A DNA stretch of 64,000 nt from a virus (Duplodnaviria > Caudoviricetes). The position numbers and the translations under genes were made by a program. Shown piece after piece: positions 380 through 53,461 of the stretch. Within the stretch, counting starts at the first letter, position 1; every line of letters begins with the position of its first letter. The stretch is taken from positions 32,001-96,000 of the IMG/VR virus record IMGVR_UViG_2935054407_000001. One strand, 5' to 3'. The notes below the pieces were generated by a model, which saw only the letters and a program-made list of their open reading frames with translations, had not been told where the DNA came from and searched no databases.

Positions 380-452
380 GCGAAACGCGCGTCTTTCACA
401 CCGGTAGGCGCGCGTCGCGTCGGGAGTCGTTACCCGATGCCTGATGAGCCAG
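376..452 (+). ncRNA. type II hammerhead ribozyme
   Basis: GGC-GAAA (379-385); stem III 385-394/406-415; GUC cleavage triplet 414-416; stem I 417-424/433-440; CUGAUGA 441-447; GCC 448-450 closes stem II. Confidence 0.9.
390..406 (+). promoter_or_regulatory. 17-bp oriented motif CGTCTTTCACACCGGTA, copy 1
   Basis: Perfect match to the consensus; lies in hammerhead stem/loop III. Confidence 0.8.
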
Positions 453-478
453 ACCACACAGAAAGAGGGCACAGACCC

Positions 479-829
479 ATGAGCAACACCGCTAAGCAGA
501 TCCAGGTTGGGACGCACGGCAAGGGCCTGCGGGCGCTGATTGAGGCCCTGGAGACCTGCACTCCCTTCAAGACGGCTGGTGCCTTTCAGGCCATGGCTGG
601 CGTGCCCTCCGGGACCGGCCGCATGCCGAAGGATGAGCGCGAGCGTTTCGAGACCGACCGACCGCAGATCACGTACACCGTTCTTTCGTACGCCACCCCG
701 ATTGCCTGGGTTCTGGAGAACGGAGAGACGTACGTCTCTGACACCTATTACTCACCCACGACGACCAAGCACCAGAGCCGTGTTCGCGTGTATCTGAACC
801 GCGCAAACGTCATTGACGAGGCTGCGTAA
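479..829 (+). CDS. small phage protein (SY-T-IA ... YS-TT-KHQ motif family)
   Basis: ATG 479 after ACACAGAAAGAGGG; motif pattern familiar from phage early genes. Confidence 0.75.
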   Translation: MSNTAKQIQVGTHGKGLRALIEALETCTPFKTAGAFQAMAGVPSGTGRMPKDERERFETDRPQITYTVLSYATPIAWVLENGETYVSDTYYSPTTTKHQSRVRVYLNRANVIDEAA

Positions 830-897
830 CGGTCGTGAGCGCTTCTGACATCGCCCGGAAATCCGGGCGGTGTTGGTGGCACGGCGAACGTGTCAGA
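830..897 (+). repeat. intergenic hairpin repeat A, copy 1
   Basis: 68 bp, near-identical to 1500-1567 (3 mismatches); long stem with G-U pairs. Confidence 0.9.
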
Positions 898-927
898 CCT
901 AAGAACATACACAGAAAGAGGGTTGTA

Positions 928-1497
928 ATGCTCACAGAGATCCGTGCCATCGCTACCGATGTTGCTCGCGAGATGGGTAACTGGACCATTCGCGACGGCT
1001 ACATGAACGGCCAGTTCTTCATCGCCGACGAGAACAAAGAGCTGTGCCTGATGTTCGATCTCACACACGAGACGGGCAGGCTCAGCATCAGTGCCTCGTA
1101 CCCGAAGAATTCCAGTGTGGTGCACGGCATCAAGGGCTACAGCATCCGCGTGTCTTACAAGCGCGGCGCGGTCGTGATCGCACGGGAGATCAAGCGGAGG
1201 TTGATGCCTGACTACCTCCGCGAGCTGGAGAGCGTTGTCACACGGATCGCCGCTCACGAGGCGGAGGAAAGGCGGCAGGCGACCATAGCGCAGACCGTCG
1301 CAACGGCGCTTGGTGTCGATTGCCCGGAGACCGTCCACCCATCCGGAGTCTATGTCCGTAGCGGCTGGTGCGGTCCGAAGGCGCCCGTTACACGCTCGGA
1401 ATTCCGCGTCATGTCCGGTAGCAGCGTGGCTATCGAGATCAAGACGGATGGTGAGGTAGCCGCAAAGATCGCCGAATTCCTTCGGACTCTTATGTAG
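928..1497 (+). CDS. hypothetical protein
   Basis: ATG 928 after ACACAGAAAGAGGG; flanked by the two repeat A copies. Confidence 0.8.
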   Translation: MLTEIRAIATDVAREMGNWTIRDGYMNGQFFIADENKELCLMFDLTHETGRLSISASYPKNSSVVHGIKGYSIRVSYKRGAVVIAREIKRRLMPDYLRELESVVTRIAAHEAEERRQATIAQTVATALGVDCPETVHPSGVYVRSGWCGPKAPVTRSEFRVMSGSSVAIEIKTDGEVAAKIAEFLRTLM

Positions 1498-1499
1498 TG

Positions 1500-1567
1500 C
1501 GGTCGTGAGCGCTTCTGACATCACCCGGATTTCCGGGCGGTGTTGGTGGCACGGCGAACGTGTCAGA
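1500..1567 (+). repeat. intergenic hairpin repeat A, copy 2
   Basis: Direct repeat of 830-897. Confidence 0.9.
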
Positions 1568-1591
1568 GCAACACGCAGAAAGGCGGGACAG

Positions 1592-2191
1592 ATGGGATCG
1601 ATTGGACTTCACCGCGAGCCTGGCATGACCGATCGGGAATTCTTCGAGAAGGAGTTCCCGAACATGCTCGGCAAGTATGGGCAGATCGTGGCCTGTGCTT
1701 CCAACCCCGCTGGTGGCGATTGGAACCGTGCTTTCTATGCGGCGGTCACCAACAACGATGACGCGTCGTATAAGCCGGGCGAGACGTGGGCGTTGGTCGT
1801 GCTGATGCGCAACGACCGTAAATCGTCGGGCGGGTGCAACTTCTACTACAAGGACTTGGACGAGACCATGGGGCCGGTTGAAAGCACCTGCCCGGACCGG
1901 ATTCTTGACCTCCTGTCACCGACCGAACATGCAGGGGCCACCAGGTGGCGAGAGCGCTGCCGTGCCCACAATGCCCGCCTGGACAAGGCGCGGAAGCTCA
2001 CCGACGGTCAGATCATCCGCTTCACCAACCCCATGCCCTTCGGTGAGCCGTATGGAGAGGCTCAGCGCTTCCGCTACCGGAAGGCGGGGCGTAAGTCGGT
2101 CCTTGAAGCGATCACCGATGACGGGGAATTCCGCTTCCGTGCCCGGATTCCCGGCTGGCGCGCAATGTCATTCGAGATCGAGAACAACTAG
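1592..2191 (+). CDS. DUF6927-like protein
   Basis: FYYKDLDETMGP..CPDRILDLLSPT..A..WRERC motif; SD AGAAAGGCGG. Confidence 0.65.
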   Translation: MGSIGLHREPGMTDREFFEKEFPNMLGKYGQIVACASNPAGGDWNRAFYAAVTNNDDASYKPGETWALVVLMRNDRKSSGGCNFYYKDLDETMGPVESTCPDRILDLLSPTEHAGATRWRERCRAHNARLDKARKLTDGQIIRFTNPMPFGEPYGEAQRFRYRKAGRKSVLEAITDDGEFRFRARIPGWRAMSFEIENN

Positions 2192-2207
2192 CAGAAAGAC
2201 GGTAGTG

Positions 2208-2465
2208 ATGGACATCCCCGCTCTCCTCGTACGCATGGCGCGCAGCGTTCCCCGGCACGACAATGCCCGAATGATTATGTGGACGGCACACGAGGCGGTG
2301 AACAACACGTCTGACCTGGTGGATGGTGCACGGGCAGCGCTGGCGTACGTGTCAACGCACATCGGCGATGCTCCCGGACAGTCCAGGGATGAGCTGCTAA
2401 ATGACGCGGTTGCGGTGCTCTCCCTACATCTGGCGCTGCACACCATCGCCGAAAAGTACAAGTAA
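2208..2465 (+). CDS. hypothetical protein
   Basis: ATG after CAGAAAGACGG. Confidence 0.7.
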   Translation: MDIPALLVRMARSVPRHDNARMIMWTAHEAVNNTSDLVDGARAALAYVSTHIGDAPGQSRDELLNDAVAVLSLHLALHTIAEKYK

Positions 2466-2481
2466 GGGAAAGGCGGGAGTA

Positions 2482-2796
2482 ATGCCAGAGCGGCGCAAGG
2501 CGACCACGAAATACACGCTCGTACAGCACAGCGGGAGCACATCGCATGCGGAATTCCGGCACGCGGTAGAAGTGCTCTCCGTCTCGACGCTCACGGAACA
2601 GGACAAGATCGAAAAGGTCGGCGGCCTGCTGTTCGAGAGCTGGGAGGAGGCGGACAACAGGGAGTACGAGGAGAACTACCCGCCGGGGGTTACCGGGCTC
2701 TACCCGCGCGTGCCCGGCACGTTCCGGACCGATCTGAAAATCGATGGGTTCAACCTCTACATCCCCGCTGCGAAGAACGACACGGAAGGCCAGTGA
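2482..2796 (+). CDS. hypothetical protein
   Basis: ATG after GAAAGGCGGG. Confidence 0.75.
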   Translation: MPERRKATTKYTLVQHSGSTSHAEFRHAVEVLSVSTLTEQDKIEKVGGLLFESWEEADNREYEENYPPGVTGLYPRVPGTFRTDLKIDGFNLYIPAAKNDTEGQ

Positions 2797-3110
2797 CCAT
2801 GCCTCTTACCGCCCCCGAAAAGCGAGCCATCAAGCGGGCTTACCGCTGTGTCGTGATGCTGAACGAGCACACGCCGGAATGGCGCGGAATGGTGGACAAG
2901 GACACCCTTGCCATGCATCACACGAGCCGCTGTGTGTTCGGCCAGGTGTTCGGCGACTTCAACGAAGGGATCGACGTGCTGTCCCTGCACGGTTGCGACG
3001 AACCGCAGCGCTACGGGCTGGATCTCGACGTGAGGAACGACGTCATGTACCCCGTGCTGGACACCGCCTGGCGGATCGTGCTTGACCACCTGGACGCGCG
3101 GTCGGCCTAG
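2793..3110 (+). CDS. hypothetical protein
   Basis: GTGA overlap with the upstream gene; CVFGQVFG motif. Confidence 0.75.
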   Translation: MTMPLTAPEKRAIKRAYRCVVMLNEHTPEWRGMVDKDTLAMHHTSRCVFGQVFGDFNEGIDVLSLHGCDEPQRYGLDLDVRNDVMYPVLDTAWRIVLDHLDARSA

Positions 3111-3186
3111 CGGATCCTCTGGTCCCCATGCCTGCCAAATATCGGGGGCGGGCATGGGCGGCCGGGGCGTCCGCTTGGACGATCAC
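3106..3186 (+). repeat. intergenic hairpin repeat B, copy 1 (loop AAATATCGGG)
   Basis: Arms CCTAGCGGATCCTC ... GGGGCGTCCGCT..G.CGATCAC shared with 4091-4172. Confidence 0.85.
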
Positions 3187-3213
3187 CACCACACACACAC
3201 AGAAAGGCGGGAG

Positions 3214-3468
3214 ATGGGAAGGCACAGCAGGAACCGATCGCCGTACCCGGCCAGCAGCACGACCCCTGACCGCTCACAGGTCACGGAATCTGAGAGCGAG
3301 GCTCTCGTCCGGCTCGCTGCTCTGGTCTGTCACAACATCGCTACCGGCTTCGCTCCGGAGCGGGCTGTGGAGGCGGCTCTCCGTTCCTTCGACGACCCCG
3401 AAAGCGTGGTCGAGCTGTGGGCAGCGGTCTGGGAGCGCATCAAATCTGAAGACACCGAAAGGCGGTAG
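3214..3468 (+). CDS. hypothetical protein
   Basis: ATG after ACACACAGAAAGGCGG. Confidence 0.7.
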   Translation: MGRHSRNRSPYPASSTTPDRSQVTESESEALVRLAALVCHNIATGFAPERAVEAALRSFDDPESVVELWAAVWERIKSEDTERR

Positions 3469-3472
3469 AACC

Positions 3473-3784
3473 ATGACCTACAACCACGCACGCATGACGG
3501 ACGCGGATCGCGCTAGGAACACCCGCACCATCACGAACAGGCTCATCCATGCATGGGAGATCATGAAGGCCACGGGTCCGGTTTCTGGCCCAGCCGACTA
3601 CTACACTGGGATGTCCACCGCGTACGAGGCGTTCACCGGCTGCAACCCCGTAGCGCTGTCGATGGCGCTGGACGACAACCGGAAGCGCCACGGCAATCTG
3701 TCGCTCTCCGATCGGGCTGACAAGCTGATCGAGTCCTTGTCTCTGGCCGAGGTCTTCCCCTACCTCAAGGACGGGGACGCGTGA
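3473..3784 (+). CDS. hypothetical protein
   Basis: ATG after GAAAGGCGG. Confidence 0.75.
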   Translation: MTYNHARMTDADRARNTRTITNRLIHAWEIMKATGPVSGPADYYTGMSTAYEAFTGCNPVALSMALDDNRKRHGNLSLSDRADKLIESLSLAEVFPYLKDGDA

Positions 3785-4095
3785 TGACTGCATACGAGAT
3801 CGCTGCTCGGGCCGCTTTCTTCGCCTCCCAGCGCGCGACACAGGCGACCGTGGCAGAGCTGCACAGGTGGGAGCGCGCGGCTCGGCGCTCTGGCAACCGC
3901 GAGCACGTCAAGGAGATCCGGCGCGAGGTGAGGCGCATTCGCGCTACCAAGCGGCTCTCTCTCATCAAGCACGGCGGCGCGTGGGCCTGCTTCGACAACC
4001 GCACGGGGTCAGTCTGCGAGACCTTCGCTTACCGCATGGACGGCGCGACCTACGTCGAGTACTGGAACGGCCAGTACCACAAGCACACGTCCTAG
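3781..4095 (+). CDS. hypothetical protein
   Basis: Start overlaps the upstream stop; 104 aa. Confidence 0.7.
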   Translation: MMTAYEIAARAAFFASQRATQATVAELHRWERAARRSGNREHVKEIRREVRRIRATKRLSLIKHGGAWACFDNRTGSVCETFAYRMDGATYVEYWNGQYHKHTS

Positions 4096-4172
4096 CGGAT
4101 CCTCCGATCACCGCGCGTCTTTCACACCGGTAGAGATGCGCGGCCGGTCGGGGCGTCCGCTGGGGCGATCAC
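4091..4172 (+). repeat. intergenic hairpin repeat B, copy 2; apical stem-loop carries the 17-bp motif (4116-4132)
   Basis: Same outer arms as 3106-3186; inner stem CCGCGCGTCT/AGATGCGCGG. Confidence 0.85.
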
Positions 4173-4202
4173 GACCAACACACACAGAAAGGCGGGAGAT
4201 CT

Positions 4203-4496
4203 ATGCGCTTCTCCTACATCAACGAGGACTACATGCGCGAGCGGTGGCCGGTCGGCTGCCGAGCACGGCTCAAGAGCCTTCCGGGGAACTCGACCACCCT
4301 GACGATCGCCCCGCACGCGGAGACGAACTCCCCCTACAACCTCCGCTACTCGACGCGGACCAAGAGCGGTCCGGCGGTCAACATCACCTACCCGAAGTAC
4401 TGGCGGAACCGCAAGGGCGGCTGGGTGTTCGCCGCAGCGCTCCGACTGATCGGTAAGTGCGCTGACGGTACGTGCAACCACGCGGAAAGGCGGTAG
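4203..4496 (+). CDS. hypothetical protein
   Basis: ATG after ACACACAGAAAGGCGG. Confidence 0.75.
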   Translation: MRFSYINEDYMRERWPVGCRARLKSLPGNSTTLTIAPHAETNSPYNLRYSTRTKSGPAVNITYPKYWRNRKGGWVFAAALRLIGKCADGTCNHAERR

Positions 4497-4502
4497 ATCC
4501 GC

Positions 4503-4610
4503 GTGCACTGTGACCGTTGCGGCCGAGAGCTGCGGGCCTGGCCGTTGGAGCGCGGAAGCCGTTGCAGCCCCAAGCGGTGGACGTACTGCATCAGGCCGAA
4601 GAGCGACTGA
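4503..4610 (+). CDS. 35-aa Cys-rich peptide MHCDRCG...CSPKRWTYCIRPKSD
   Basis: GTG after GAAAGGCGG; fills the gap; too short to appear in the ORF track. Confidence 0.6.
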   Translation: MHCDRCGRELRAWPLERGSRCSPKRWTYCIRPKSD

Positions 4611-4648
4611 GACTCCCCAACCGCACACAGAAAGGCGGTAGTTCCACC

Positions 4649-4918
4649 ATGCCTAAGATCCTGATCGCCACCGACAAGGCTCCGCAGAGCAGCGTCCCCA
4701 ACGTGCGCGGGATGAACTGGGTGGCCCGTCGCGCCGCCATCATCCGCGCGGCCTTCCACCTGGAGAGGCAGGAGCGGGCCGTGCGGGCGCTGATGGCGAT
4801 GACCTTCGACGGCGACGAGCGGATCAAGCTCAAGGCCCTGCTCCAGCAGATCCAGGCGGACATCCGGAGCATCCACGTCTACGCCAAGGCCGGTTATCCG
4901 TCTGTCCGGGAGATCTGA
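4649..4918 (+). CDS. hypothetical protein
   Basis: ATG after ACACAGAAAGGCGG. Confidence 0.75.
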   Translation: MPKILIATDKAPQSSVPNVRGMNWVARRAAIIRAAFHLERQERAVRALMAMTFDGDERIKLKALLQQIQADIRSIHVYAKAGYPSVREI

Positions 4919-5692
4919 GTGCGCGCCCGGTTTCTCTGTGGTGCTCCGGAGTTGAGTTGGGCCGAAGATCACGGCGACATCGGGCCGCTTTTCATCAGCT
5001 TCAACCGCATTTGCCGATTGAAGTTTCGGCCCATCGATGTCACCACGGATTTCGCTATCGACAGTGGCGGCTTCACACAGCTTTCCAATGGCGGTTGGCC
5101 GGACGGCTGCGAAGAGCCCTACATCGCGGCGATTCGCAGGCTCAAGCGCTTCATCTGGAGAGGCGGCCACCACCTTCTGTGGATCGCTCCGCAAGATTGG
5201 ATGTGCGAGGAAGAGCAGCTAGCCAACACTGGTCTTACGGTGCTCGAACACCAGAGACGCACCGTGCGGAACTTCGCCCGGCTCACTCAGCTTGCCCCCG
5301 ATCTTCCGTGGGCCATGGCTGTGCAGGGTGATACGCCGAGAGCCTATCTCCGCATTCTCGACATGTACGCAGACGCAGGAGTCGATCCCCTCGCACAGAA
5401 GATCGTTGGCGTCGGTTCCATCTGCCGAATTCAGCACACGGACAAGGCCGTCGAGATTATCGAGACCTTGCACGATGCCGGACTGCGGAAGCTACACGGA
5501 TTCGGACTGAAGACGGAAGGGCTCGCGAAGGTCGGGCATCTCCTCACCTCCGCCGATTCGATGGCCTGGTCTGAGCATGCCCGCAAGCAGAAGATCCACC
5601 TTGACGGGTGCTCGCATAAGCGGTGCGTCTCCTGCCCGAAATTCGCCAAGCAATGGCGAGACAACCTCATCAATCGCGGGCTCGCTGCCTAA
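4919..5692 (+). CDS. queuine tRNA-ribosyltransferase/DpdA-like (TGT-fold) protein
   Basis: Motifs DSGGF, QDWMCE, GVGS, LHGFG, SADSMAWS; C-terminal Cys cluster. Confidence 0.8.
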   Translation: MRARFLCGAPELSWAEDHGDIGPLFISFNRICRLKFRPIDVTTDFAIDSGGFTQLSNGGWPDGCEEPYIAAIRRLKRFIWRGGHHLLWIAPQDWMCEEEQLANTGLTVLEHQRRTVRNFARLTQLAPDLPWAMAVQGDTPRAYLRILDMYADAGVDPLAQKIVGVGSICRIQHTDKAVEIIETLHDAGLRKLHGFGLKTEGLAKVGHLLTSADSMAWSEHARKQKIHLDGCSHKRCVSCPKFAKQWRDNLINRGLAA

Positions 5693-5720
5693 TCGTTCAC
5701 ACAGAAAGACGGTAATAGTC

Positions 5721-6236
5721 ATGTCCTTCTACCCCTATGAGCTGTGCGTGACGCTCCGATCCCAGAACCCGGATGACACGGATGAGATGTCGGTTGATCT
5801 CCTGGCTGTCGAACTGGACGAGTTGAAGGCTGCGGTTCTCAGTACCTTCGGCGGTATCTACGTCGAGGTGGACACGGACGACGGCAACTGGGAAGGCGTC
5901 CAGGTGTCCGGGACCACCATTGAGCAGCTCTGGAAGCTGGCGAAGCTGGCCACCGAGTCTCGTGACGCGAACTGCTTCATGGCCTGGGCGGGCATCCTGC
6001 CGGGCGGGCTCGCGAGTCTTGACCCGGAAACGGCGATCAGGGACTTCCGTAGGGAGTTCGAGGGCGACTACGAAGACCTCGCTGAATATGGACACACCCT
6101 CATGGAGGACGAAATCCGGCACATGCCCATCCTGGACCAGTTCTTCAACTTCGCGGAGTACGGCAAGTACGTCGCCGCTGACCACCGGGTTGTCGAGCTG
6201 TCCACCGGCCGCATCGCCGTCTTTGGGAAGGGCTGA
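5721..6236 (+). CDS. ardA: ArdA-like antirestriction protein
   Basis: Acidic protein; C-terminus FEGDYEDLAEYG..LM...LDQFFNFAEYG...GRIAVF is typical of ArdA. Confidence 0.7.
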   Translation: MSFYPYELCVTLRSQNPDDTDEMSVDLLAVELDELKAAVLSTFGGIYVEVDTDDGNWEGVQVSGTTIEQLWKLAKLATESRDANCFMAWAGILPGGLASLDPETAIRDFRREFEGDYEDLAEYGHTLMEDEIRHMPILDQFFNFAEYGKYVAADHRVVELSTGRIAVFGKG

Positions 6237-6239
6237 GTC

Positions 6240-6614
6240 ATGGCTGATGGCATCCGCAAGAGCGACGGGGCGCGCGGCAAGCTGGTTGGTCCTGCTCCCT
6301 GGGGGCCTGAGGGGCACACCGTCTATGAGTGGAGCGACACTCAGCCGCGCTTTACCCGAGAGATCCTGCCGGATCACATGGTGGTCAACCCGGACGAGCC
6401 GAAGAACGGTCGATGGGGGCAGGTGGCAGAGCTGGCGGTGGCCACGGGCGGCGCAGCCTTGAAGCTTGGCGAGATCGCCGCGCTCTGCCTGGACGGCGGC
6501 TGGTACACCGAGACGGAGCTGGACGCCGTACGGCAGCTCGATCGGCTGGAGAATCTCGTCAAGCTGATGCGGAGCCGGGTGGAGGCGGCCCGGCGCACGC
6601 AACGCAACGCCTGA
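6240..6614 (+). CDS. hypothetical protein
   Basis: 124-aa ORF in the operon. Confidence 0.7.
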   Translation: MADGIRKSDGARGKLVGPAPWGPEGHTVYEWSDTQPRFTREILPDHMVVNPDEPKNGRWGQVAELAVATGGAALKLGEIAALCLDGGWYTETELDAVRQLDRLENLVKLMRSRVEAARRTQRNA

Positions 6615-6679
6615 TGTCTCGGCGGGGTTGACTCCTAGAATCGAGTAGACCTGGAGCCAACCCCGATCGGAGCCGAATC

Positions 6680-7015
6680 ATGGCGAATTCCCTGACGATG
6701 TATCTGCCCGTTTCAGCTATCGATGCAATGAGCGAAAAGGCGGAAGGAAGCGGGCTCACCCTGTCGTTCGTTGCATCGGCTCTTGTAGCCAGAGCGCTGA
6801 GGGATAAACTCCCCCCCGAGTTTCTCGACCTCCCGAAATTCGAGCGGGGTTTGAAGAAGCGCAATCAGAATGTCTACGTCCCTGATAGTGTTTGGACGGC
6901 TGACGGAGTCATTAAGACGGTTCCTGAAAATGAGCGCCCTAGGTTCGTCACGGCGCTGATGTACGCCTACTCCCGATGCCTGGTGGACGTACAGCTATCT
7001 GTAACAGTCACCTGA
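6680..7015 (+). CDS. putative ribbon-helix-helix DNA-binding protein
   Basis: Strand SLTMYLP then two helices (LSFVASALV); a second QNVYVP unit. Confidence 0.45.
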   Translation: MANSLTMYLPVSAIDAMSEKAEGSGLTLSFVASALVARALRDKLPPEFLDLPKFERGLKKRNQNVYVPDSVWTADGVIKTVPENERPRFVTALMYAYSRCLVDVQLSVTVT

Positions 7016-7039
7016 TACACGCACAGAAAGAGCAGCGGA

Positions 7040-7825
7040 TTGAGAACAAAGGAAGACATCGAGCGGCGGGTGAAGGCTTACCTTGCCAAGGCCGAATCTG
7101 CCGTCAAGCTCGGAAACATGGAAGAAGCGAAGCTGTTCTTCGGGGCGGTTTCCGAGATGGTCTATACCTATGACCTCGACGAAGCCGTTTTGCGGACAGA
7201 GAACAACGCCGGTAAGACGGAAATCACGATCTCTTCGCATCGTTTCCAAGTGTCGAACCGTGGCCAGCACGGACCAGAGCGGATCGAAGCGCTGTTCTCC
7301 TTCGTAGGCGCGATGAACTGCGAGGGGGTGTCCATTGGCTGCGCACGAAACACGTATGGACAGCCCATCGACTTTGAAGTCCTGGGACCTGCTGAGACAG
7401 TGGACCGGTTGAAGCTGTTGATCCCAATTCTGCTGTTGCAGATGGAGGACGCAGCTCGTCAGTCGGCGAAGAAGTTCCGCAAGGAACAGGAGATGTACTA
7501 CCTCAACCCTGCGAACTTGTCTCGCGCGGTGACCAAGTGGTTCAGATCGGTGCTCGTTGGCTACGGACGAGGCGTTGCCGCGAAGATCCAAGAGCGCATG
7601 GCCAAGACGTACGAAGAAGCCACGGAGGGATCGACGGCTGCTCTGGTCCTCTACGATCGCGCGACGGCACTGGAGGCCGCTCTCAAGGAGCGGTGGCCAA
7701 AGCTCCGCCCTTCTCGAACGCGCAAGCTCTACAGCGATGCCCTCCGCGAGGGCCAGCGGCTCGGCAAGCAAGCTGACCTGGGTGACGCCCGGATCGGCAG
7801 CGAGACGCGGGCCATTCCTCGATAG
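7040..7825 (+). CDS. DUF2786-family protein
   Basis: N-terminal V..YLAKAES......EEA..F...V.EM...YDL; C-terminal G...G..ADLG. Confidence 0.7.
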   Translation: MRTKEDIERRVKAYLAKAESAVKLGNMEEAKLFFGAVSEMVYTYDLDEAVLRTENNAGKTEITISSHRFQVSNRGQHGPERIEALFSFVGAMNCEGVSIGCARNTYGQPIDFEVLGPAETVDRLKLLIPILLLQMEDAARQSAKKFRKEQEMYYLNPANLSRAVTKWFRSVLVGYGRGVAAKIQERMAKTYEEATEGSTAALVLYDRATALEAALKERWPKLRPSRTRKLYSDALREGQRLGKQADLGDARIGSETRAIPR

Positions 7826-7901
7826 CCGGTTCCATGTCGGGGCGGCGTCCTACCATGGGGCGTCGCCCCGCTTCGTCCCCGAATACACACAAGGAGTAAG
7901 G

Positions 7902-8378
7902 GTGTCCGACAACGAGCACGGCGAGCTGGAAGCCTGGAGCAAGTACTACATTCTGGGCGACGACGAAGAGGCCGTTCTCCACTGGAGCACGAACGACGAC
8001 GGCGACACCGGCTACCCCGGCACCTTCGCGAGCGACAGTCGCTCCTTCCACAGGCGTGAGGACGCGACCGCGCTCCAGCAGGCCGTGAGACACGCGGGCG
8101 GTGGCTCCCGTCAGGGGATCGGCCACAACGTGCACGTCTACATCAACGGCGAGGAGTACAAGGGCGGCAAGGACTGCCAGCCGGAGCCCTCTGCTCCTGC
8201 CCCGCTTTCGGCTGAGTTCGTGATGGCTATGGCTGGTGCCCTGGTCGCGGGGAAGACCGGCGACGGCACGGCCATGCTGAACGCTCTCCGCGAGATCAGC
8301 CCGGAGGACCGGGAGCACCTGCTGTGGATGTGCGAGCAGGTCATAGCCGGAATCGAGCAGTTGAGAGAGGACGACTAG
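7902..8378 (+). CDS. hypothetical protein
   Basis: GTG after ACACACAAGGAG, preceded by a GC hairpin at about 7838-7870. Confidence 0.7.
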   Translation: MSDNEHGELEAWSKYYILGDDEEAVLHWSTNDDGDTGYPGTFASDSRSFHRREDATALQQAVRHAGGGSRQGIGHNVHVYINGEEYKGGKDCQPEPSAPAPLSAEFVMAMAGALVAGKTGDGTAMLNALREISPEDREHLLWMCEQVIAGIEQLREDD

Positions 8379-8572
8379 TGAGCAGCGAGATGCGCGTCAG
8401 GATCGTAGAGACGACGGTTCCCTGTCCCGAGTGCGGTAAGCCCGTCTGCAACCTGTGCGCGTTCAACCAGATGTGCCAGCACTGCAAGAACCCGCTCGAT
8501 GGCGAGACCCTACAGCGGGCGGAAGACGAGCTGGAAGCGATGTTCAGGAACGAGGCGCAGAGTGAGCAGTGA
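8378..8572 (+). CDS. small zinc-ribbon protein
   Basis: CPEC, CNLC, CQHC. Confidence 0.65.
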   Translation: MSSEMRVRIVETTVPCPECGKPVCNLCAFNQMCQHCKNPLDGETLQRAEDELEAMFRNEAQSEQ

Positions 8573-8939
8573 CAAGCCTTTGGTGGAGGTCGAAGTCGCC
8601 GACCCCATGGCGGGCGACACTGAGCCGTCCATCCGCTACACCACCCGAAATCGCGTAGCTCCAGGCATGTCGCAGGGTGGGCACGTCAGCGCGGAGACGG
8701 CGCGCGCTCTGATCACGGCACTTCGGTACGGGCTCCAGATGATCGAAGAGCGGAAGCCCAAGAAGCCGAAGGACGACGTACCGCGCTGTGAGGATGACGG
8801 CTGGGTGCTGGAGGCCAGCGAGGACGCTACCGGCAAGATCCTCTCGTGCCCGCGATTGAGATGCGGGTTCGTCTGGGAGGTGCCGGGACAGGCAACGGAA
8901 GAGCAGTGGAACAAGGCATGGGAAGCGGGGCGCGTCTAG
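8562..8939 (+). CDS. hypothetical protein
   Basis: Overlapping operon gene. Confidence 0.65.
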   Translation: MSSDKPLVEVEVADPMAGDTEPSIRYTTRNRVAPGMSQGGHVSAETARALITALRYGLQMIEERKPKKPKDDVPRCEDDGWVLEASEDATGKILSCPRLRCGFVWEVPGQATEEQWNKAWEAGRV

Positions 8940-9223
8940 TGAAGAAGATCCACCGTAGGCACATCACGGAGGCCCTCGGTAACGCCGGTATCGATCACAC
9001 CGCCGAAATTCTCAACTCCCACGAGTCGCCCACCGGCCGGGTTGGATTCGGCATCGAATTCAAGTCCTACGGAGACGCCACCAAGTTCTTCGTCGGCCTG
9101 GGAATGTTCCTTTACGACGACGCAGACGAAGAACTTGCTTACGAACTGGCGGGCGCTGTGGCGCTGGTAAACACAGCCAGGACCACGATCTTCTTCTTCC
9201 CCGGCTGGGAGCTGGAGGACTGA
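8939..9223 (+). CDS. hypothetical protein
   Basis: TAGTG translational coupling. Confidence 0.7.
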   Translation: MKKIHRRHITEALGNAGIDHTAEILNSHESPTGRVGFGIEFKSYGDATKFFVGLGMFLYDDADEELAYELAGAVALVNTARTTIFFFPGWELED

Positions 9224-9621
9224 TGTCTGAGAAGAACGAGGTGACGGCCGAGGAACTAGCTGCGCTCGACGCCGTGTGCAAGGAAACCGGCCTGGTGGAA
9301 GGGTGGGAGTACTTCAACCTGTTCCGCAAGCGCGGCAACCCGGACATTCAGGTGGTCGGTCCGTTCAACTGGCCGCACCGGATCCCGCGTCCGAACGTCA
9401 AGCTCGTACGCCGGAAGAAGGTCACCAGCTACGGGAAGTTCGAAGCAGTCCAATTCGACGTGAACGGTGACGCTATCGAGGACACGCCCTTTCATGCGTT
9501 CGTGCGCTGGATCGCATCTCTGGACGATCCGGAAAACGCGGAAGAGCGGCTCGGCGTAACGCCGTCCGAGATCATCGCCAAGGCCACCGCCATAGTGAAA
9601 GACGCGGAGAACAACGAGTGA
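9223..9621 (+). CDS. hypothetical protein
   Basis: TGATG coupling; SD GGAGG. Confidence 0.75.
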   Translation: MSEKNEVTAEELAALDAVCKETGLVEGWEYFNLFRKRGNPDIQVVGPFNWPHRIPRPNVKLVRRKKVTSYGKFEAVQFDVNGDAIEDTPFHAFVRWIASLDDPENAEERLGVTPSEIIAKATAIVKDAENNE

Positions 9622-9640
9622 GCCGAAGGGTGCTCATCTG

Positions 9641-10243
9641 ATGGACGCCATAGACCGGGAACACGCGATCTACGCGGCGGAGACCACTTCCAACTGCCCC
9701 AAATGCGATACGAGCAAATTCAGCATCGTCCCCAATTCTCCGCGCGCATTCTGCGAGCCCTGCGGCTACACGTGGGTACTCGGGTCGGAGCTGTACTCCT
9801 GTGCCTGTGCGAAGTTCATCGGCAACAACGACCAGGCCATCATGCACATCCGCGAAAACGGCGGCTGTGAGACCTGCCTGGGCACTGGCGAGGCCACCCC
9901 GATGGGCGGGGCGCACGGTCACTGCACATCGTGCGGCGGCTCGGGGCGGGGCTACAACGGCATAGAGGAGACCGTGACACTCACGGTGACGCTCAGGGTT
10001 CACAAGAACCCATCGGCCGAACCTGCTCTCGGTGTCGATGACCAGCCTGCCGAGTTCATCGCAAAGGAGTTCGCGGATCGTGTGCGCCTGGCCTTACAGG
10101 ACGAGATCAAAGAACCCGTTCTCGAACGTGTCCTCGTAGGCACGCTGAGGCAGGGTAGCGGCTCCTTCACCCTGTACGACGGCAGGGTGGCGCGCGTGGA
10201 AGTGACCGCGAACAGGGTCCGAGTGGAGGACGCAGCGCGATGA
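9641..10243 (+). CDS. Cys-rich protein with DnaJ-like CxxCxGxG motifs
   Basis: CPKC, CEPC, CETCLGTG, CTSCGGSG. Confidence 0.65.
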   Translation: MDAIDREHAIYAAETTSNCPKCDTSKFSIVPNSPRAFCEPCGYTWVLGSELYSCACAKFIGNNDQAIMHIRENGGCETCLGTGEATPMGGAHGHCTSCGGSGRGYNGIEETVTLTVTLRVHKNPSAEPALGVDDQPAEFIAKEFADRVRLALQDEIKEPVLERVLVGTLRQGSGSFTLYDGRVARVEVTANRVRVEDAAR

Positions 10244-10263
10244 CGTACTACGACAAGGAGTAA

Positions 10264-10521
10264 GTGATGGGCCACGAGCTGCACGTGACGACGTGCTACA
10301 ACCCCGTTTGCCGGAAGGTCTTCGACTTCGATCCCGAGACGGTCAATTCGGTCTTGGTCGATCCGGAAACCGGTCTTCCACCGGACACGGATCCAGAGAC
10401 GCGCACGCCGACGCGCACGCCGACGCCGGAGGAGCTGGCGCGGTCGGAGCGGATGCCGATCTGCCCTGAATGCGCTAACAAGATGCGTCGGAGAATCGCT
10501 CGTGAGCAGAAGCAGGGCTGA
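10264..10521 (+). CDS. small zinc-binding protein
   Basis: CYNPVC ... CPEC; SD AAGGAG. Confidence 0.7.
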   Translation: MMGHELHVTTCYNPVCRKVFDFDPETVNSVLVDPETGLPPDTDPETRTPTRTPTPEELARSERMPICPECANKMRRRIAREQKQG

Positions 10522-10593
10522 GTGAGCGCCTTTGTCGCCCGAATTCGGGGCGGGCGGCATTGGGGTCTACTCAGGTCATCGAAAGGAGCTGCT

Positions 10594-10752: not shown

Positions 10753-10767
10753 TCAGGGAGAACTGAT

Positions 10768-43227: not shown

Positions 43228-43264
43228 AAAAGCGGGGGTCCCATGGCTTGGGGGACCCCCGCTT
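43228..43264 (-). terminator. intrinsic terminator
   Basis: AAGCGGGGGTCCC...GGGACCCCCGC-TTTT. Confidence 0.8.
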
Positions 43265-50389: not shown

Positions 50390-50405
50390 AGGACCCTCTC
50401 AATGA

Positions 50406-51350
50406 TTAAGTGCTGGGGAACCCGCTGTCGGGGTCGTACGCGTACATGCCGCCTCCGACCGGAGTGGCCTCGTACATGACTCCCGGCGGCCTAGGTTCAG
50501 ACGGAGCCGCGTTTCCGCAGTTGTCGTACGTGTACGAGCGGTTCATGTAGCTGCTGAAGCGCACCGTGTAGGTTTGCTTGCACTCGTCTTTCGGTGGCGG
50601 CTCATAGCTGGTGTGAATGCGGCAGCCGTCATCAGGTGGCGGAGGCGGAGGCGGCGGCGGATCCGGATCGAAGTCTGAATTCGGAATGCCCGGCCCGCCC
50701 TTGTTGAGGCAGCGCACCAGGTAGCAGCGCAGGTAGACGTTGACCGGCGCGACGGCGCGGTTTACGTCGGCGAGAATGGCGTGCAGGGCAACGGTGATGT
50801 CCGTGCCTTCTACGAGGTTTTCCTGCCAAGTGACCGTGGTCGTCATGCTGTCTCGGTTGCCGTCGGTCTCCAGCAGCACATCGCGTAACCCGACGTCCTT
50901 CGCGTTGATCTCCAACGACAGGATGCGCGAGGTGATCTGCTGCTGGCTTTGGCTGGTGGCGTGCCAGTCGGCCTTGGCGACGATCACCCAGTAGCCGGTC
51001 TGGGGGATGCGGTAGCCGGTGCCGTGTGCGCCGTCGTGGGTGTCCTCGATCGGGTCCAGGCGCGGCCGGAAGTACTCGTTGGGGACGACCTGGGCGCCGA
51101 TGTTGCTACCCCGGTAGGTGATCATGGGCTCGGCGCGGGCGGCGGCCAAGATGCGATCGGTGACCGTGCCGTAGTCCACCGTGCGGTCCGCCGGGTTGTT
51201 GGTGGCCTTGTGCGGCATCAGGCCAAGCGTGCGCTCGATCGCCGCAACTTCGTCCTGGACCTGGTTGAAGTGGGCGGCAAAAATTGGATCTTGAAAATCG
51301 CGCTTGGTGCTCCAGCCGCGCAGCGTCGCGGGATAGTTCGCAGGCATCAA
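50406..51350 (-). CDS. tail/baseplate protein, paralog 2
   Basis: YP..WSTKR...HFN.VQDEV.AI.RTLG. Confidence 0.7.
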   Translation of the reverse strand: MMPANYPATLRGWSTKRDFQDPIFAAHFNQVQDEVAAIERTLGLMPHKATNNPADRTVDYGTVTDRILAAARAEPMITYRGSNIGAQVVPNEYFRPRLDPIEDTHDGAHGTGYRIPQTGYWVIVAKADWHATSQSQQQITSRILSLEINAKDVGLRDVLLETDGNRDSMTTTVTWQENLVEGTDITVALHAILADVNRAVAPVNVYLRCYLVRCLNKGGPGIPNSDFDPDPPPPPPPPPDDGCRIHTSYEPPPKDECKQTYTVRFSSYMNRSYTYDNCGNAAPSEPRPPGVMYEATPVGGGMYAYDPDSGFPST

Positions 51351-52810
51351 GCCACCCCGCCGGTAGTGGCCATGGTGATGGTGCCGAGCTGGGGCAGTTC
51401 GTAGGCGGCCATGACGGCATCGGCCAGCACGGTCTGCGCCGCGTCGTGCCGGGCCAACACGGGGATCGTGATGTTGACGACGCCAGGGATCGCCGTCAGT
51501 GCGCCGTAGACCTCACCGATGGTGATCTTGGAGCCGAAGCCGTTGTCCGGGCTGTTGACCAGCGACGTGAGGGTGTTGCGGACGCTGGTCTCCACCTGGA
51601 AGCGGCGGTAGGTCGGCGCTACGGTGAGCTGCATCGGAGTCGTCACCGACCCAAAATTGATCTTGATGATGGTCGGCCCCTGCACGTTGACCCGCACACC
51701 CGCTGCGGAGGAGGCGGTGAGCTGGGCCGTCACGGCGTTGATCAGATCCACGCTCGGGGTCGTCCGGCCGGGACCGGCGATGTAGACCACGACGGAGCTG
51801 CTCACGTTGGACACGGCGTTGGCCGCCGAGACGCCCGGCACCGTGAGTGCGATCTTGCTGTAGTCGTCCAGAGTGATGGCGCGGCCGAAAGCGGCGTAGG
51901 CCAGGGAGGCGTTGCGGCGGATCTCCTCGATGTCCTCGCGGTCCCCGCCGCCGGTCATGGCCGTGGAGATCGGCACACCTGCTGGAGTGGTGGCCAGCGT
52001 GACGCCGTCAATCCCGTCGGACATGGTCCAGATGTGGCCCGCGCCCAGGTTGCCGTTGCGCCCCTCGCCGCTGCGGAAGGTCGCGTACACGCGGGAGCCG
52101 AGCGGCGGGATCTCCCCGTTGACGCCGTCGCCGAACAAGAGGCTGACGCTGCCCTCGGGGTCAGGGCGGATCGTGAAAACCGGGTCGTGGGGTGCGCTGT
52201 AGATGAGCCGTGCGACGTAGGTCCACTCCAGGTCCGCATATGGCGCTTCGACGTGGACGCGCACACTGCCGTCGATCACTCCGCGATTGGGGATCTCGAA
52301 CTTCTGTAGCTCGGTGCCGTCGCTCACCCCGAGCAGCATCTTCGTCGTGGTGCGGCCCTCGGCCACGGGTACCACCGCCGTGCCGCCAGCGGCGGGAACA
52401 GTGACTTCCTGGGTGGACTCGAAGCGCAAGACGCCGTCGATCGCTTCCAGGTAGCGGCTGCTGAAGGCCGTGCCCGCAGGCACGACGACGGCCGGGCCGT
52501 CGGCATCGGTGATCAAGGTGACGGTGCCGACGGCTGCGACGTTGGAGTGACTGACATACCCCAGCACGTCGGCGATGGTCATGACGGCCTGCATCGTGGT
52601 GGCTGTCGGCAGGTAGGACTCCGCCAGCAGCCGGTCAATGGAGTAGTTGAGCAGGTCGGCGCTGTGGCTGAACAGCTCGGCGAGCACCACGCCGAAGTCG
52701 GCCTCCGAGCGGCTGGTCCACTCCGGAAGGATGATGTCGGCATGCCGCAGGAGATCGGTCTTGATCTCCTGGTAGTCGGCGCTGGTGTAGTCGATGGGGA
52801 CGTCAGCCAC
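51347..52810 (-). CDS. baseplate J / gp6-like protein
   Basis: IDYTS.DY, DFGVVL.E, FGDGVNG.IP, GG.D.E, RAITLDDY. Confidence 0.9.
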   Translation of the reverse strand: MADVPIDYTSADYQEIKTDLLRHADIILPEWTSRSEADFGVVLAELFSHSADLLNYSIDRLLAESYLPTATTMQAVMTIADVLGYVSHSNVAAVGTVTLITDADGPAVVVPAGTAFSSRYLEAIDGVLRFESTQEVTVPAAGGTAVVPVAEGRTTTKMLLGVSDGTELQKFEIPNRGVIDGSVRVHVEAPYADLEWTYVARLIYSAPHDPVFTIRPDPEGSVSLLFGDGVNGEIPPLGSRVYATFRSGEGRNGNLGAGHIWTMSDGIDGVTLATTPAGVPISTAMTGGGDREDIEEIRRNASLAYAAFGRAITLDDYSKIALTVPGVSAANAVSNVSSSVVVYIAGPGRTTPSVDLINAVTAQLTASSAAGVRVNVQGPTIIKINFGSVTTPMQLTVAPTYRRFQVETSVRNTLTSLVNSPDNGFGSKITIGEVYGALTAIPGVVNITIPVLARHDAAQTVLADAVMAAYELPQLGTITMATTGGVA

Positions 52811-53222
52811 GGAGCCTCTCCCTGATCCGGCCGCGCGAGTCGATCGACGCCGTGTGAATGGAGCGGGCCAGCCCGTCAGGGGAGTCCGGCGCGTCCGTGC
52901 GGGTGTAGCGGATGTCGATGGAGGCGATGCTCATCTGATCCGGCTTGGGGAAAGGCCGGACGTCGTTGACGATGACGCCGGGCTCCCACATGGCCATCTG
53001 GACCTTGGTCCGCTCGGTCAGCTCAGCCGCCACCAGACCGCCGCCGGGCTCAAAGAGATAGTCGAGCACCGGCACACCGAACTGCGGCAGCATCACCCGC
53101 TCCTCGGGCTCGGTGCCGACCACGGACACGATGCGCTGCACGATCTGTTTGGCCGGATCACGGGTGACCGCGATGCCGCCGTCAGCTCCGATCCGAAACG
53201 GCAAATCCAGGGCAACGGGCAT
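52803..53222 (-). CDS. baseplate wedge gp25/gpW
   Basis: T.P.ERVM.P.FG, WEP. Confidence 0.9.
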   Translation of the reverse strand: MPVALDLPFRIGADGGIAVTRDPAKQIVQRIVSVVGTEPEERVMLPQFGVPVLDYLFEPGGGLVAAELTERTKVQMAMWEPGVIVNDVRPFPKPDQMSIASIDIRYTRTDAPDSPDGLARSIHTASIDSRGRIRERLRG

Positions 53223-53461
53223 CAGGACTCCCCGTACTGACCCGCCGGGCTGAAGTAGCTACCGCCTGCCGGTCTGAAAGACGCCTCCGGCTGGGGAGCG
53301 GCATCCGCCGGACGGTACAGCAGCACGAGCGTCTCCAGCTCCCGGATACGCGCCTGCGCGGTCCGCAGCCGGGCCTCGGTCACCACGGCGCGATCCTCGG
53401 CCGCGATACGCGCGGCTCGCTGAGCCTCCGCGTAGTCAGACAAATTCAGCGCGTCGTCCAC
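53222..53461 (-). CDS. small coiled-coil protein
   Basis: 79-aa ORF; contains a 17-bp motif copy at 53267-53283. Confidence 0.6.
   Translation of the reverse strand: MDDALNLSDYAEAQRAARIAAEDRAVVTEARLRTAQARIRELETLVLLYRPADAAPQPEASFRPAGGSYFSPAGQYGES

Follow-up and report, generated by a model that had tools for sequence, protein, structure and literature searches.

A strand-polar word, probably private to one lineage of temperate phages and partly nested in predicted hammerhead ribozymes

A short asymmetric word, CGTCTTTCACACCGG-N-A-N-R, recurs through the genome of a temperate phage, and it is very probably a cis-acting signal private to the phage lineage and read by a factor of the phage's own. 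The window analysed here is the 64,000-nt stretch at positions 32,001-96,000 of IMGVR_UViG_2935054407_000001, the full phage record being 109 kb long. The motif is real. A pattern scan of the window gave nine matches at ≤3 mismatches against 0.40 expected, a number reached in none of 100 shuffles. In the full record, 18 copies differ from the 15-mer core by no more than two mismatches, and a control with the reversed pattern gave no matches. Rescanning recovered the eight copies reported in the first-pass annotation, with coordinates, strands and mismatch counts all as claimed (Table 1). The ninth match, at 30733-30749 on the minus strand with three mismatches, lies inside a ribonucleotide reductase gene and was treated as chance because it is not kept in the related prophage described below. 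Membership of the degenerate 24156 copy in the system likewise appears doubtful, since this copy has no counterpart in the relative.

Table 1. Copies of the word in the window and one hairpin that carries a copy (positions are those of the window)
Feature	Position	Strand	Context
Perfect copy	390-406	+	Within predicted hammerhead 378-458; stem III arms CGUCU (5') and AGGCG (3') close the loop UUCACACCGGU
Hairpin, arms CCGCGCG/...GCGCGG	4111-4143	+	Intergenic; -30.4 kcal/mol, z -3.3
Perfect copy	4116-4132	+	Top of hairpin 4111-4143; orthologous copy in sister prophage at 14081
Perfect copy	19884-19900	-	Intergenic; ortholog in sister prophage at 28656
Degenerate copy, 3 mismatches	24156-24172	-	Intergenic; 31 nt ahead of an ATG
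Perfect copy	25852-25868	-	Inside ORF 25535-26848, read as AVFHTG; sister ortholog at 35544
Copy, 1 mismatch	39565-39581	-	Directly after the stop of a DnaB-like helicase gene (39583-40839)
Perfect copy	42607-42623	-	Inside ORF 42105-43244 (379 aa), in a low-complexity linker; reads RLSHR
Copy, 1 mismatch	53267-53283	-	Near the 3' end of 79-codon ORF 53222-53461; sister ortholog at 63908

The word has no exact dyad symmetry, and its orientation is that of the local genes for 8/8 copies in the window and 18/18 in the full record, across five gene-direction changes. A scan of the whole record had been proposed as a check on the earlier claim that orientation flips with gene direction, and the claim held. 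The first-pass annotation was also right that the word is not a peptide motif, the four in-frame copies beginning at codon positions 3, 1, 1 and 2, and that the signal lies at the DNA or RNA level in strict co-orientation with transcription. Conservation extends past the 17-mer first reported: of 33 copies, 30 retain A17 and 31 have a purine at position 19. Information is limited to positions 1-19, where two conserved blocks lie 10 bp apart. Across the full record 14 of the 18 copies are intergenic and about four to five fall in coding sequence. Placement is densest in the early anti-restriction operon (nine sites in 9 kb); the replication block has further sites, and others precede the lysis genes, the baseplate genes and a GntR-type regulator gene of the phage. 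For a phage that is otherwise unannotated, the word outlines the regulatory skeleton.

Within the window, a preference for gene junctions is borne out by four intergenic copies (390, 4116, 19884 and 24156) and one across the helicase/primase overlap (39565), and is not borne out by the three inside ORFs (25852, 42607 and 53267). The hairpin that carries the 4116 copy lies between ORF 3781-4095, whose stop is 15 nt away, and the ATG at 4203, which follows after 72 nt. After the 19884 copy come the AGGAG-N6-ATG of a 40-codon ORF and then a CHAP/PG-binding endolysin gene (18927-19745), while the 53267 copy, in which the lower stem CGUCU/AGGCG is present, stands 46 nt ahead of the ATG of a gp25-like baseplate gene (52803-53222). 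The ORF enclosing the 25852 copy has a weak Cas4-type nuclease match and carries the word just before its C-terminal Cys cluster. The 39565 copy spans codons 5-10 of a DnaG-type primase gene (38586-39593), where it is read as RLSPR.

A phage-encoded reader is suggested by comparison with a sister prophage of ~78% nucleotide identity, which is without the word itself. At 14 of the 18 orthologous places, gene-internal copies included, the sister carries instead the variant CGTCT[AC][CT]C[TA]AACCGGGA, and all 15 of its copies are co-oriented with flanking or enclosing ORFs. In the 12.4-Mb genome carrying this relative, 14 of 17 pattern matches fall within 74 kb of the prophage. At four gene-internal sites the encoded peptide is altered between the phages and the DNA word is kept; the peptide is RLPNR both at the ortholog of the 39565 copy (49854) and at that of the 42607 copy (52888). 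Concerted change of the word at 14 orthologous places points to a trans-acting, co-evolving and phage-encoded reader, and a reader acting in trans is thus strongly implied by the paired sequences. This comparison rests on two lineages, the only ones carrying the system; neither kin with 59-62% sheath identity nor Streptomyces phage BRock has the word. The same data bear on a host Nus-factor site, boxA-like and serving processive antitermination, which is scarcely credible here. By eye, and in this phage alone, GTCTTTCACAC matches 8 of the 11 letters of the rrn boxA core, but the boxA-like letters TTTCACA are exactly those replaced in the relative (by ACCTAA, CCCTAA and similar), whereas a host Nus site should stay unchanged between relatives. 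In addition, 18 dispersed copies, five within coding sequence, are not what would be expected of a leader element, and the word's absence from these kin and BRock also speaks against such a site, so that the boxA/Nus analogy drawn in the first-pass annotation falls away.

Several copies are embedded in predicted self-cleaving RNA elements. A type II hammerhead ribozyme is predicted at 378-458 on the plus strand (Rfam RF02276; 42.4 bits, gathering score 37; model 1-66 full-length), with GAAAC, GUC and CUGAUGA in its alignment, and the 390 copy within it falls in a ~970-bp stretch missing from the relative. This phage has five predicted hammerheads, all of them full-length RF02276 matches and three at or above the gathering score; the other four score 49.2 and 37.2, and, below the cut-off, 33.5 and 27.6. 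The cmscan alignments display the RF02276 core (CUGANGA, GAAA and an NUH cleavage triplet) together with closed stems I and III and an open stem II, and the stem arms vary between copies with pairing kept. In four of the five the word occupies stem III and its loop, as a loop III insert of 11-17 nt, and the distance from the motif end to the predicted cut is a steady 8-12 nt; the other 14 occurrences of the word lie outside ribozymes. Arrays of type II hammerheads flanking genes in prophages are described in the accessible portion of PMC3088659. The first-pass annotation had missed the hammerhead at copy 390, the hairpin-tip placement of intergenic copies and the temperate lifestyle.

With four copies in hammerheads, several others in stem III-like hairpins and homology breakpoints between the two phages adjoining these word and hairpin elements, it might be asked whether the copies have a function of their own or are decayed stem III remnants or a selfish hairpin repeat. 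Such an origin is very improbable: copies inside genes, in three different reading frames, persist at orthologous places with letters specific to each lineage, the outer arms have no common sequence, and one hammerhead in each phage is without the word in its loop.

Whether the word is read as duplex DNA or as RNA is a closer matter. Most intergenic copies, including the four in hammerhead stem III, stand at the tops of RNA hairpins, which counts against a DNA operator; hairpin copies outside ribozymes occur at genome positions 27483, 29806 and 36116 (z -3.3 to -4.0). The outer arms vary from copy to copy and do so in a covarying manner (score 0.272, shuffled 0.188; none of 500 shuffles scored as high), and in one orthologous hairpin both arms have changed, from CACG/CGTG to GGGAG/CUCCC. 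Hairpin-tip placement and outer-arm covariation are not what a DNA operator predicts. Also against it, the two degenerate positions of the word vary exactly so as to keep pairing on the sense strand, Y7-G15 forming in 33/33 copies (UG 23, CG 10) and U3-R19 in 31/33 (UA 17, UG 14). Pairing at 8-14, 7-15, 5-17 and 3-19 is present in 31-33 of the 33 copies, G-U wobbles occur only on the sense strand, and overall 78% of cells pair compared with 37-58% when the partners are slid. These features suit a word that takes the form of a short stem-loop in the nascent transcript (or non-template strand), with 5' arm CGUCUnYC, a five-base loop ACACC (WAACC in the relative) and 3' arm GGnAGRCG, and is recognised by a phage RNA-binding protein. 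Such a protein would act in the manner of lambda N or HK022 Nun on boxB and, at cistron ends, govern termination or read-through, the stability of the transcript or how the ribozyme folds. Arginine-rich peptides read boxB via an invariant 5' arm and loop with a loose 3' arm, and here too the 5' arm and loop are invariant and the 3' arm is loose. Moreover, copies stand 0-25 nt past stop codons and in stem III of four of the five hammerheads, and stem III, once the ribozyme cleaves, is the 3'-terminal hairpin of the upstream message.

This RNA reading is a close rival of a DNA operator but, taken by itself, somewhat unlikely. Pairs 4-18 and 2-20 are present in just 16 of the 33 copies and pair 1-21 in 20, the presumed loop includes two less conserved positions (9 and 10), and no RNA-binding family was found besides a SpoVS-like protein. 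Known nut-type systems have two sites per genome, not 18. Furthermore, the gene-internal sites 25852 and 39565 and their orthologs have no lower stem, yet all 15-17 letters of the word are kept in both phages, which indicates that the hairpin is not needed for retention of the word. There is also a small chance that the word is dual-coded, the apical loops of hammerhead stem III and of the look-alike hairpins at cistron ends being docking sites for a phage protein that would read nascent RNA and gate transcript continuity by cleavage or read-through.

A phage-specific promoter, at which the host polymerase with an unrecognised phage factor initiates near A17-R19, is distinctly less probable than either DNA or RNA reading. 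Like T7-group promoters, the word forms a compact and contiguous unit with a polarity, and its variants are specific to a lineage; purines are conserved at positions 17 and 19, and copies stand 6-87 nt ahead of the lysis cassette, the gp25-like baseplate gene, the GntR gene and many early genes. Inside hammerheads, where the spacing from word to predicted cut is steady, such a promoter would begin the message 6-10 nt short of the cleavage point, and the 5' ends from cutting and from initiation would be near-identical. No promoter architecture accompanies the copies, however: a TANNNT or -35-like pentamer occurs at no fixed offset in more than 2 of 32 copies, and no sigma-70 region 2 was found. 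Neither was a T7-type polymerase, the PF00940 search of the record's six frames being unvalidated, with control genomes equally silent (the largest unassigned ORFs are of 740 and 591 aa). The early operon already has a predicted 10/12 sigma-70-like promoter 870 nt upstream, the 39565 copy lies after the start codon of the gene that it would serve, two copies lie deep inside genes, and no copy heads the long minus-strand block.

Altogether, the word is most likely the docking site of a phage-made transcription regulator, and the reading tentatively preferred, possible rather than probable on its own, makes it a temperate phage's DNA operator, asymmetric and dependent on orientation, that works as operators and stoperators do in cluster A mycobacteriophages. 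The reader would then be a protein, it would read duplex DNA, and its binding would block elongation. A phage DNA-binding protein may dock on the blocks CGTCT (positions 1-5) and ACCGG (11-15), one helical turn apart, and hold back host RNA polymerase moving in one direction. In crowded early intergenic regions, sites may have been put at the only spot tolerating extra letters, the tops of RNA hairpins, including hammerhead stem III. In favour of a DNA operator, two blocks 10 bp apart have the geometry of a monomeric two-domain stoperator repressor, as described in the accessible part of PMC9283540. Counting against it are the copy-free regions of the genome, at 85.3-108.9 kb (head and tail genes) and 36.2-51.8 kb. 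No copy overlaps the sigma-70-like promoters, consensus matches only, predicted in the divergent control region at genome positions 26038-26066 (+) and 25248-25219 (-).

The phage is temperate, with two tyrosine integrase ORFs, and its relative is integrated in a Nonomuraea chromosome, embedded in a 1.46-Mb scaffold. The HTH proteins common to both prophages, of GntR type, tandem-HTH and LuxR type, are candidate readers. In this phage a copy stands 36 nt ahead of the ATG of the GntR gene, and one lies likewise just upstream of that gene in the relative, though the segment is inverted there. The GntR-type and LuxR-type candidates belong to families other than that of the cluster A repressor. 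A repressor of the cluster A type (monomeric, with an N-terminal HTH and a 'stoperator' domain) was not found, one candidate having been tested, the tandem-HTH protein: it had no PDB sequence match at E≤10, and its model (pLDDT 67.7) gave a best Foldseek match at E 0.19, to transposase and AraC-type bipartite domains. As for the readers put forward earlier, the supposed RHH (6680-7015) and HTH (35926-36357) proteins match no Pfam or PHROG family at E≤0.01; the WhiB (26680-27069) and SpoVS (21255-21653) genes are genuine, and nothing links either to the motif.

Polar genome-wide operator networks have, to our knowledge, been documented experimentally for cluster A mycobacteriophages only. Another, unrelated network in a large Nonomuraea-type prophage would mark the strategy as a general one of temperate actinophages, and a matched pair of site variants would serve tests of how immunity specificity evolves. 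With the word nested in the loops of predicted self-cleaving ribozymes, two layers of control, over transcription and over RNA processing, meet in one 80-nt element. Should the reader act on RNA, the arrangement would be a natural protein-gated hammerhead, and the dual-coded arrangement, if true, would be both an RNA-level counterpart of stoperators and a naturally protein-controlled ribozyme.

Among known systems, the prophage hammerhead arrays of Perreault et al. 2011 share type II hammerheads between small genes in one polycistronic block that includes ardA, but here four of five ribozymes carry a private regulatory word in loop III. T7-group promoters are likewise contiguous polar words of ~20 bp that differ in concert between relatives, whereas here no phage RNA polymerase gene was found, there is no AT-rich melting segment, and some copies lie inside the genes that they would serve. 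The lambdoid nut sites (boxB/N; HK022 Nun) share a short stem with a five-base loop on the sense strand and a conserved 5' arm and loop, and they differ between related phages in step with each phage's own protein; unlike them, the present system has 18 sites rather than two, some of them stemless, no N-like protein identified and a boxA part that fails. The L5 stoperators, proposed as an analogue in the first-pass annotation, are the closest known layout, as far as the accessible text of PMC9283540 goes. Shared with cluster A (L5 gp71, the TipsytheTRex repressor) are a temperate actinobacteriophage and asymmetric sites distributed genome-wide with orientation tracking transcription. Cluster A mycobacteriophages have >20 sites that vary between relatives with immunity specificity, each with two recognition blocks in adjacent major grooves, and placement at hairpin tips and inside ribozymes, as seen for the intergenic sites here, is not reported for stoperators in the accessible parts of the same sources (PMC9283540, PMC6550527). 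The site count here (18, and 15 in the relative) is slightly lower, the word is longer (17-19 bp against 13-14 bp), no site overlaps a predicted promoter as cluster A operators do, and the phage is a 109-kb myovirus-type prophage with no repressor homolog found, not a cluster A siphovirus. The conserved inverted repeats (CIRs) of the temperate Streptomyces phage phiC31 are 17-bp repressor sites present in more than 12 copies per genome, symmetric and without polarity, whereas the word described here is asymmetric and strictly polar.

The word is genuine and polar, is under selection and belongs to this lineage alone. In the window, CGTCTTTCACACCGGYA was matched nine times at up to three mismatches against 0.40 expected, a count reached by none of 100 dinucleotide-preserving shuffles. 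The eight copies reported in the first-pass annotation were all recovered at the same positions and on the same strands; the ninth match (30733, three mismatches, within the ribonucleotide reductase gene) is taken as chance because it is not kept in the relative described below. Across the whole record of 108,967 bases, of which the window covers 32001-96000, the 17-mer gave 16 matches at up to two mismatches, its reversed pattern none, and the 15-mer core 27 at up to three. The copy set of this phage (G000) was defined as the 18 core matches with at most two mismatches, leaving out nine with three. Rows dropped as chance were nine three-mismatch and eight one-mismatch rows of the G000 pattern lists and three rows of the list for the sister prophage G001 (21037, 36021, 66946), none of which carries the AC/AACC and GG-N-A features. 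Orientation follows transcription, as had been proposed: through five changes of direction, all 18 copies are co-directed with their enclosing or adjoining ORFs (two-sided binomial about 8e-6 by our own arithmetic, which assumes independent copies).

Gene layout was taken from a cross-checked GC3-based ORF map. The plus-strand block is regarded as an early, anti-restriction block because its small genes include a DUF932-like protein, DpdA and ArdA. The minus-strand block holds structural genes (tail sheath, baseplate J, a gp25-like protein, a tape-measure/lysin protein), replication and nucleotide genes (DnaB-like helicase, DnaG-type primase, SNF2 helicase, family A DNA polymerase, ribonucleotide reductase) and a CHAP endolysin gene. 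Nine copies, every one intergenic, fall within the early block's first 9 kb, 0-25 nt past a stop codon and 25-87 nt ahead of a likely start preceded by a ribosome site, whereas the five conserved copies of the minus block lie mostly within or across ORFs. The earlier description of copies as mostly at junctions therefore holds for the early block only. Its statement that the word is not a peptide motif stands, with four in-frame copies falling in three different reading frames.

Coordinates of the word copies, ribozymes, gene blocks and neighbouring elements, and of pairs within the word
Feature	Position	Strand	Remarks
Mixed left arm	genome 1-27 kb		GC3-based ORF map
Plus-strand block	genome 27-44.5 kb (window 1-12,800)	+	GC3-based ORF map
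Long minus-strand block	genome 45-97 kb	-	GC3-based ORF map
Intergenic copy	window 19884	-	lies ahead of an ORF of 40 codons and of the endolysin gene
Copy across helicase/primase overlap	window 39565	-	
Three copies within ORFs	window 25852, 42607, 53267	-	
Copies without counterpart in relative	genome 23455, 27886, 32390 (window 390), 56158 (window 24156)		
Hammerhead_II RF02276	window 378-458	+	Rfam 42.4 bits, gathering score 37; full-length match
Hammerhead	genome 30581-30651	+	49.2 bits
Hammerhead	genome 27874-27953	+	37.2 bits
Hammerhead	genome 28568-28644	+	33.5 bits, under cut-off
Hammerhead	genome 27112-27183	+	27.6 bits, under cut-off
G000-specific insert	window -57 to 909		~970 bp, contains window 390
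Homology breakpoints G000/relative	genome 27545, 28653, 29827, 30580		
Ribosome-site word starts	window 458, 911, 1575, 2191, 3199, 3454, 4184, 4627, 5701; genome 26914-31931		
Repeat family CCCGGAAATCCGGGCGG...GTGTCAGA	window ~865-905, ~1525-1570		
Repeat family GGGGCGTCCGC...GGCGATCAC	window ~3150-3198, ~4143-4180		
Divergent control region	L010 6000-7930 (genome 25000-26930)		outside window
Gene-free stretch	L009 12290-12880		outside window, ~600 nt
Terminator-like hairpin with T run	window 12866-12882	+	where plus and minus blocks converge
Two DpdA/TGT-type genes and ArdA gene	window 4919-5692, 5577-6236, 12931-14385		DpdA/TGT-type genes: PF23859; phrog_887, 'queuine tRNA-ribosyltransferase'
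Cas4-like nuclease region	window 25261-25839, 25535-26848	-	
Pair in word	positions 8-14		33/33 copies
Pair in word	positions 7-15		33/33 (UG 23, CG 10)
Pair in word	positions 5-17		32/33
Pair in word	positions 3-19		31/33 (UA 17, UG 14)
Pairs in word	positions 4-18 and 2-20		16/33 each
Pair in word	positions 1-21		20/33

A tail sheath protein search of IMG/VR retrieved one close relative, G001 (90,284 bases, 88% amino-acid identity), which is syntenic with G000 at about 78% nucleotide identity and has three hammerhead matches. The G000 word matches G001 once, at three mismatches; when 415-base stretches around each G000 copy were aligned, a related word, CGTCT[AC][CT]C[TA]AACCGGGA, was found at the same places. 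A Nonomuraea scaffold (G002), identical to G001 across the 17,715 bases compared, extends it leftward and adds two orthologous copies; in total, the relative has a counterpart for 14 of the 18 copies in G000. At gene-internal sites the peptide alters along with the word (e.g. RLSHR to RLPNR). In the 12.4-Mb G002 genome, 14 of the 17 occurrences of CGTYTNNCNAACCGG lie within 74 kb of the prophage. More distant kin lack the word, orthologous junctions included, both in G039:C45 and G212:C24 (sheath identity 59-62%) and in Streptomyces phage BRock (45%); G039 has one hammerhead and BRock none. The exact 15-mer occurs in 35 IMG/VR contigs at one match each, which is chance level, and a 20-kb megablast against GenBank phages gave no match. 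Anchoring on the DUF932-like early protein retrieved nothing with a single-sequence query; a two-sequence alignment query retrieved 10 metagenome, 30 viral and 3 genome loci, among which the word occurs only at those of the known relative. Because the variant stands at orthologous places, peptides change with it and kin lack it, these comparisons indicate that the word is private to one lineage, that selection at the nucleotide level maintains it, and that it has changed in concert at many unlinked places. A putative phage-encoded reader would be the simplest cause of such change; with flanks that are unrelated, gene conversion among 17-bp words is an unlikely one, and that the word is a functionless repeat is highly improbable.

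An alignment of 33 copies (18 from G000, 13 from G001, two from the G002 extension) shows information restricted to positions 1-19. C1 G2 T3 C4 T5, C8, A11 C12 C13 G14 G15 and A17 are invariant or nearly so, position 19 is a purine in 31 copies, and positions 6, 7, 9, 10, 16 and 18 vary between or within lineages; the two invariant blocks are spaced 10 bp apart. The analogy with boxA drawn in the first-pass annotation has the least probability of the readings named here. Every early-block copy tops a predicted hairpin (z down to -4.0), which is hammerhead stem III in four cases and otherwise a stem with unrelated arm sequences. Six further outer pairs covary (0.272 against 0.188 shuffled, 0 of 500 shuffles as high, a score that descent-related sequences can inflate), and one orthologous pair has swapped both outer arms, from CACG/CGTG to GGGAG/CTCCC. 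Such hairpin tips, and variation at positions 7 and 19 that wobble pairing tolerates, would be well accounted for by a signal read in RNA from the hairpin loop. The lower stem is missing in both phages at two gene-internal sites, so the hairpin, common and selected in intergenic copies, is not required for retention of the word. Anti-Shine-Dalgarno pairing, in which CGUCUUUC binds the phage ribosome-site word GAAAGGCG (MFE fold of copy 31308), was rejected as what the word is conserved for, since the variant in the relative is incapable of it.

The copy at window 390 forms the inner 5' arm and loop of stem III of a hammerhead ribozyme, and four further hammerheads lie just upstream of the window between early genes, all on the plus strand. 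In four of these five, stem III or loop III includes the word; the loop of the top-scoring one is short and lacks it. A CUAC loop III occurs in the relative. Passages of an earlier study (PMC3088659) already describe type II hammerhead arrays that surround prophage genes, ardA among them. The hammerhead-plus-motif pattern matches at least 120 IMG/VR loci, and among the matches listed a CUGAUGA-type core lies nearby in only one, an unrelated hammerhead. A trans-cleaving hammerhead or antisense RNA was considered and rejected, the whole record holding no antisense copy of the word. The insert bearing window 390 has a hammerhead that most resembles the relative's copy at 8709, and where homology between G000 and the relative breaks off within the early block, a motif hairpin or hammerhead lies immediately alongside.

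A promoter would explain why positions 17 and 19 are purines and why the hammerhead cut lies at a steady distance of 8-12 nt. No machinery for this was recovered: neither a T7-type polymerase (PF00940, on which control genomes are equally silent) nor sigma-70 region 2 was found, region 4-like matches are weak HTH matches, consensus scans of the window gave counts no higher than shuffled expectation, and a TANNNT or -35-like pentamer stands at any fixed offset in at most 2 of 32 copies, leaving no -10 element. Some copies also lie inside the genes they would serve, and this reading is improbable. A 10-of-12 sigma-70-like site (TTGACA-17-GATAGT) was predicted about 870 nt ahead of the first early ATG and a second in the opposite direction; neither overlaps a copy. 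The divergent control region in L010, a locus of G000, holds two predicted sigma-70-like promoters together with 'aattaattcaattag' repeats that are AT-rich and a leader of 870 nt with a partial motif hairpin, GCGTCTTTCAGCCCA...TGGGCAGACGC; its gene-free stretch has no Rfam match.

Other elements surround the copies. A ribosome-site word, ACACAGAAAGGCGG(TA), stands 5-9 nt ahead of the start codons of about 20 genes of the early plus-strand block only; GGCGGTAG recurs, and the extended form is identical in both phages, with core GGCGG, not GGAGG. The two intergenic hairpin-like repeat families of the early block are also present in the relative and reached neither the Rfam gathering score across the window nor E<=1 in window 1-13000. 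The L009 stretch is conserved with the relative in multiple frames of either strand and may encode a structured RNA; it has no Rfam match and is bounded by motif copy 12881, folded there into a hairpin of 17 bp with a T run after it, whose hairpin partner in the relative is altered to fit that phage's variant. The two DpdA/TGT-type genes and ArdA together suggest 7-deazaguanine DNA modification. The Cas4-like nuclease frame extends about 300 nt into the next ORF and homology to kin changes frame near window 25700, which reflects a frame error or else a genuine overlap. The more distant prophage G212:C24 (loci L242-L247) has its own repeat families: GTTTCTTGGTGGA, about 15 times, runs antisense to a word placed some 20 nt ahead of start codons, and the palindrome TGAACATGTTTA occurs about 10 times.

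Candidate readers are found in the left arm, which encodes two tyrosine integrase-family ORFs, one adjoining a tRNA gene, and LuxR-type, XRE/DUF5753 and GntR-type regulators as well as a protein of 128 aa that contains two HTH units. Three of these genes are common to G000 and its relative: those for the GntR-type (G000 16977-17585), tandem-HTH (8487-8873) and LuxR-type (11296-12285) proteins. The motif copy upstream of the GntR gene (36 nt from the start in G000) is kept in both phages, despite inversion of that segment in the relative. In the tandem-HTH protein, both recognition helices are almost the same in G000 and the relative; this would suit the two invariant blocks but is no proof. 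Its model (pLDDT 67.7) shows two three-helix bundles, with a best Foldseek match in PDB at E 0.19 (bipartite transposase, AraC-type domains) and nothing from phmmer against PDB. Among the readers suggested earlier, the WhiB-like and SpoVS-like genes are real, whereas the RHH and HTH candidates have no family match.

Altogether, the word is tentatively read as a putative DNA operator of the stoperator kind, the likeliest of the readings though short of probable. It is favoured by precedent in temperate actinophages, by blocks spaced 10 bp apart, by gene-internal sites that have no stem and by the shared HTH proteins, all of which the RNA hairpin-loop signal explains poorly. Against it stand the hairpin tips and wobble-compatible variation, predicted promoters that lack a copy and a cluster A repressor homolog that was not found, for which the RNA signal accounts well; that signal is possible, if rather doubtful, and the remaining probability falls to something unlisted. 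According to passages of two studies of temperate actinophages, stoperators are asymmetric sites, more than 20 in number, with a polarity such that inversion abolishes repression; they are bound by a monomer whose two DNA-binding domains occupy adjacent grooves, and the motifs diverge as immunity does (PMC9283540, PMC6550527). The putative operator would represent a variation on regulatory networks of an established type, unusual in one respect: its word is nested in ribozyme and other hairpin loops.
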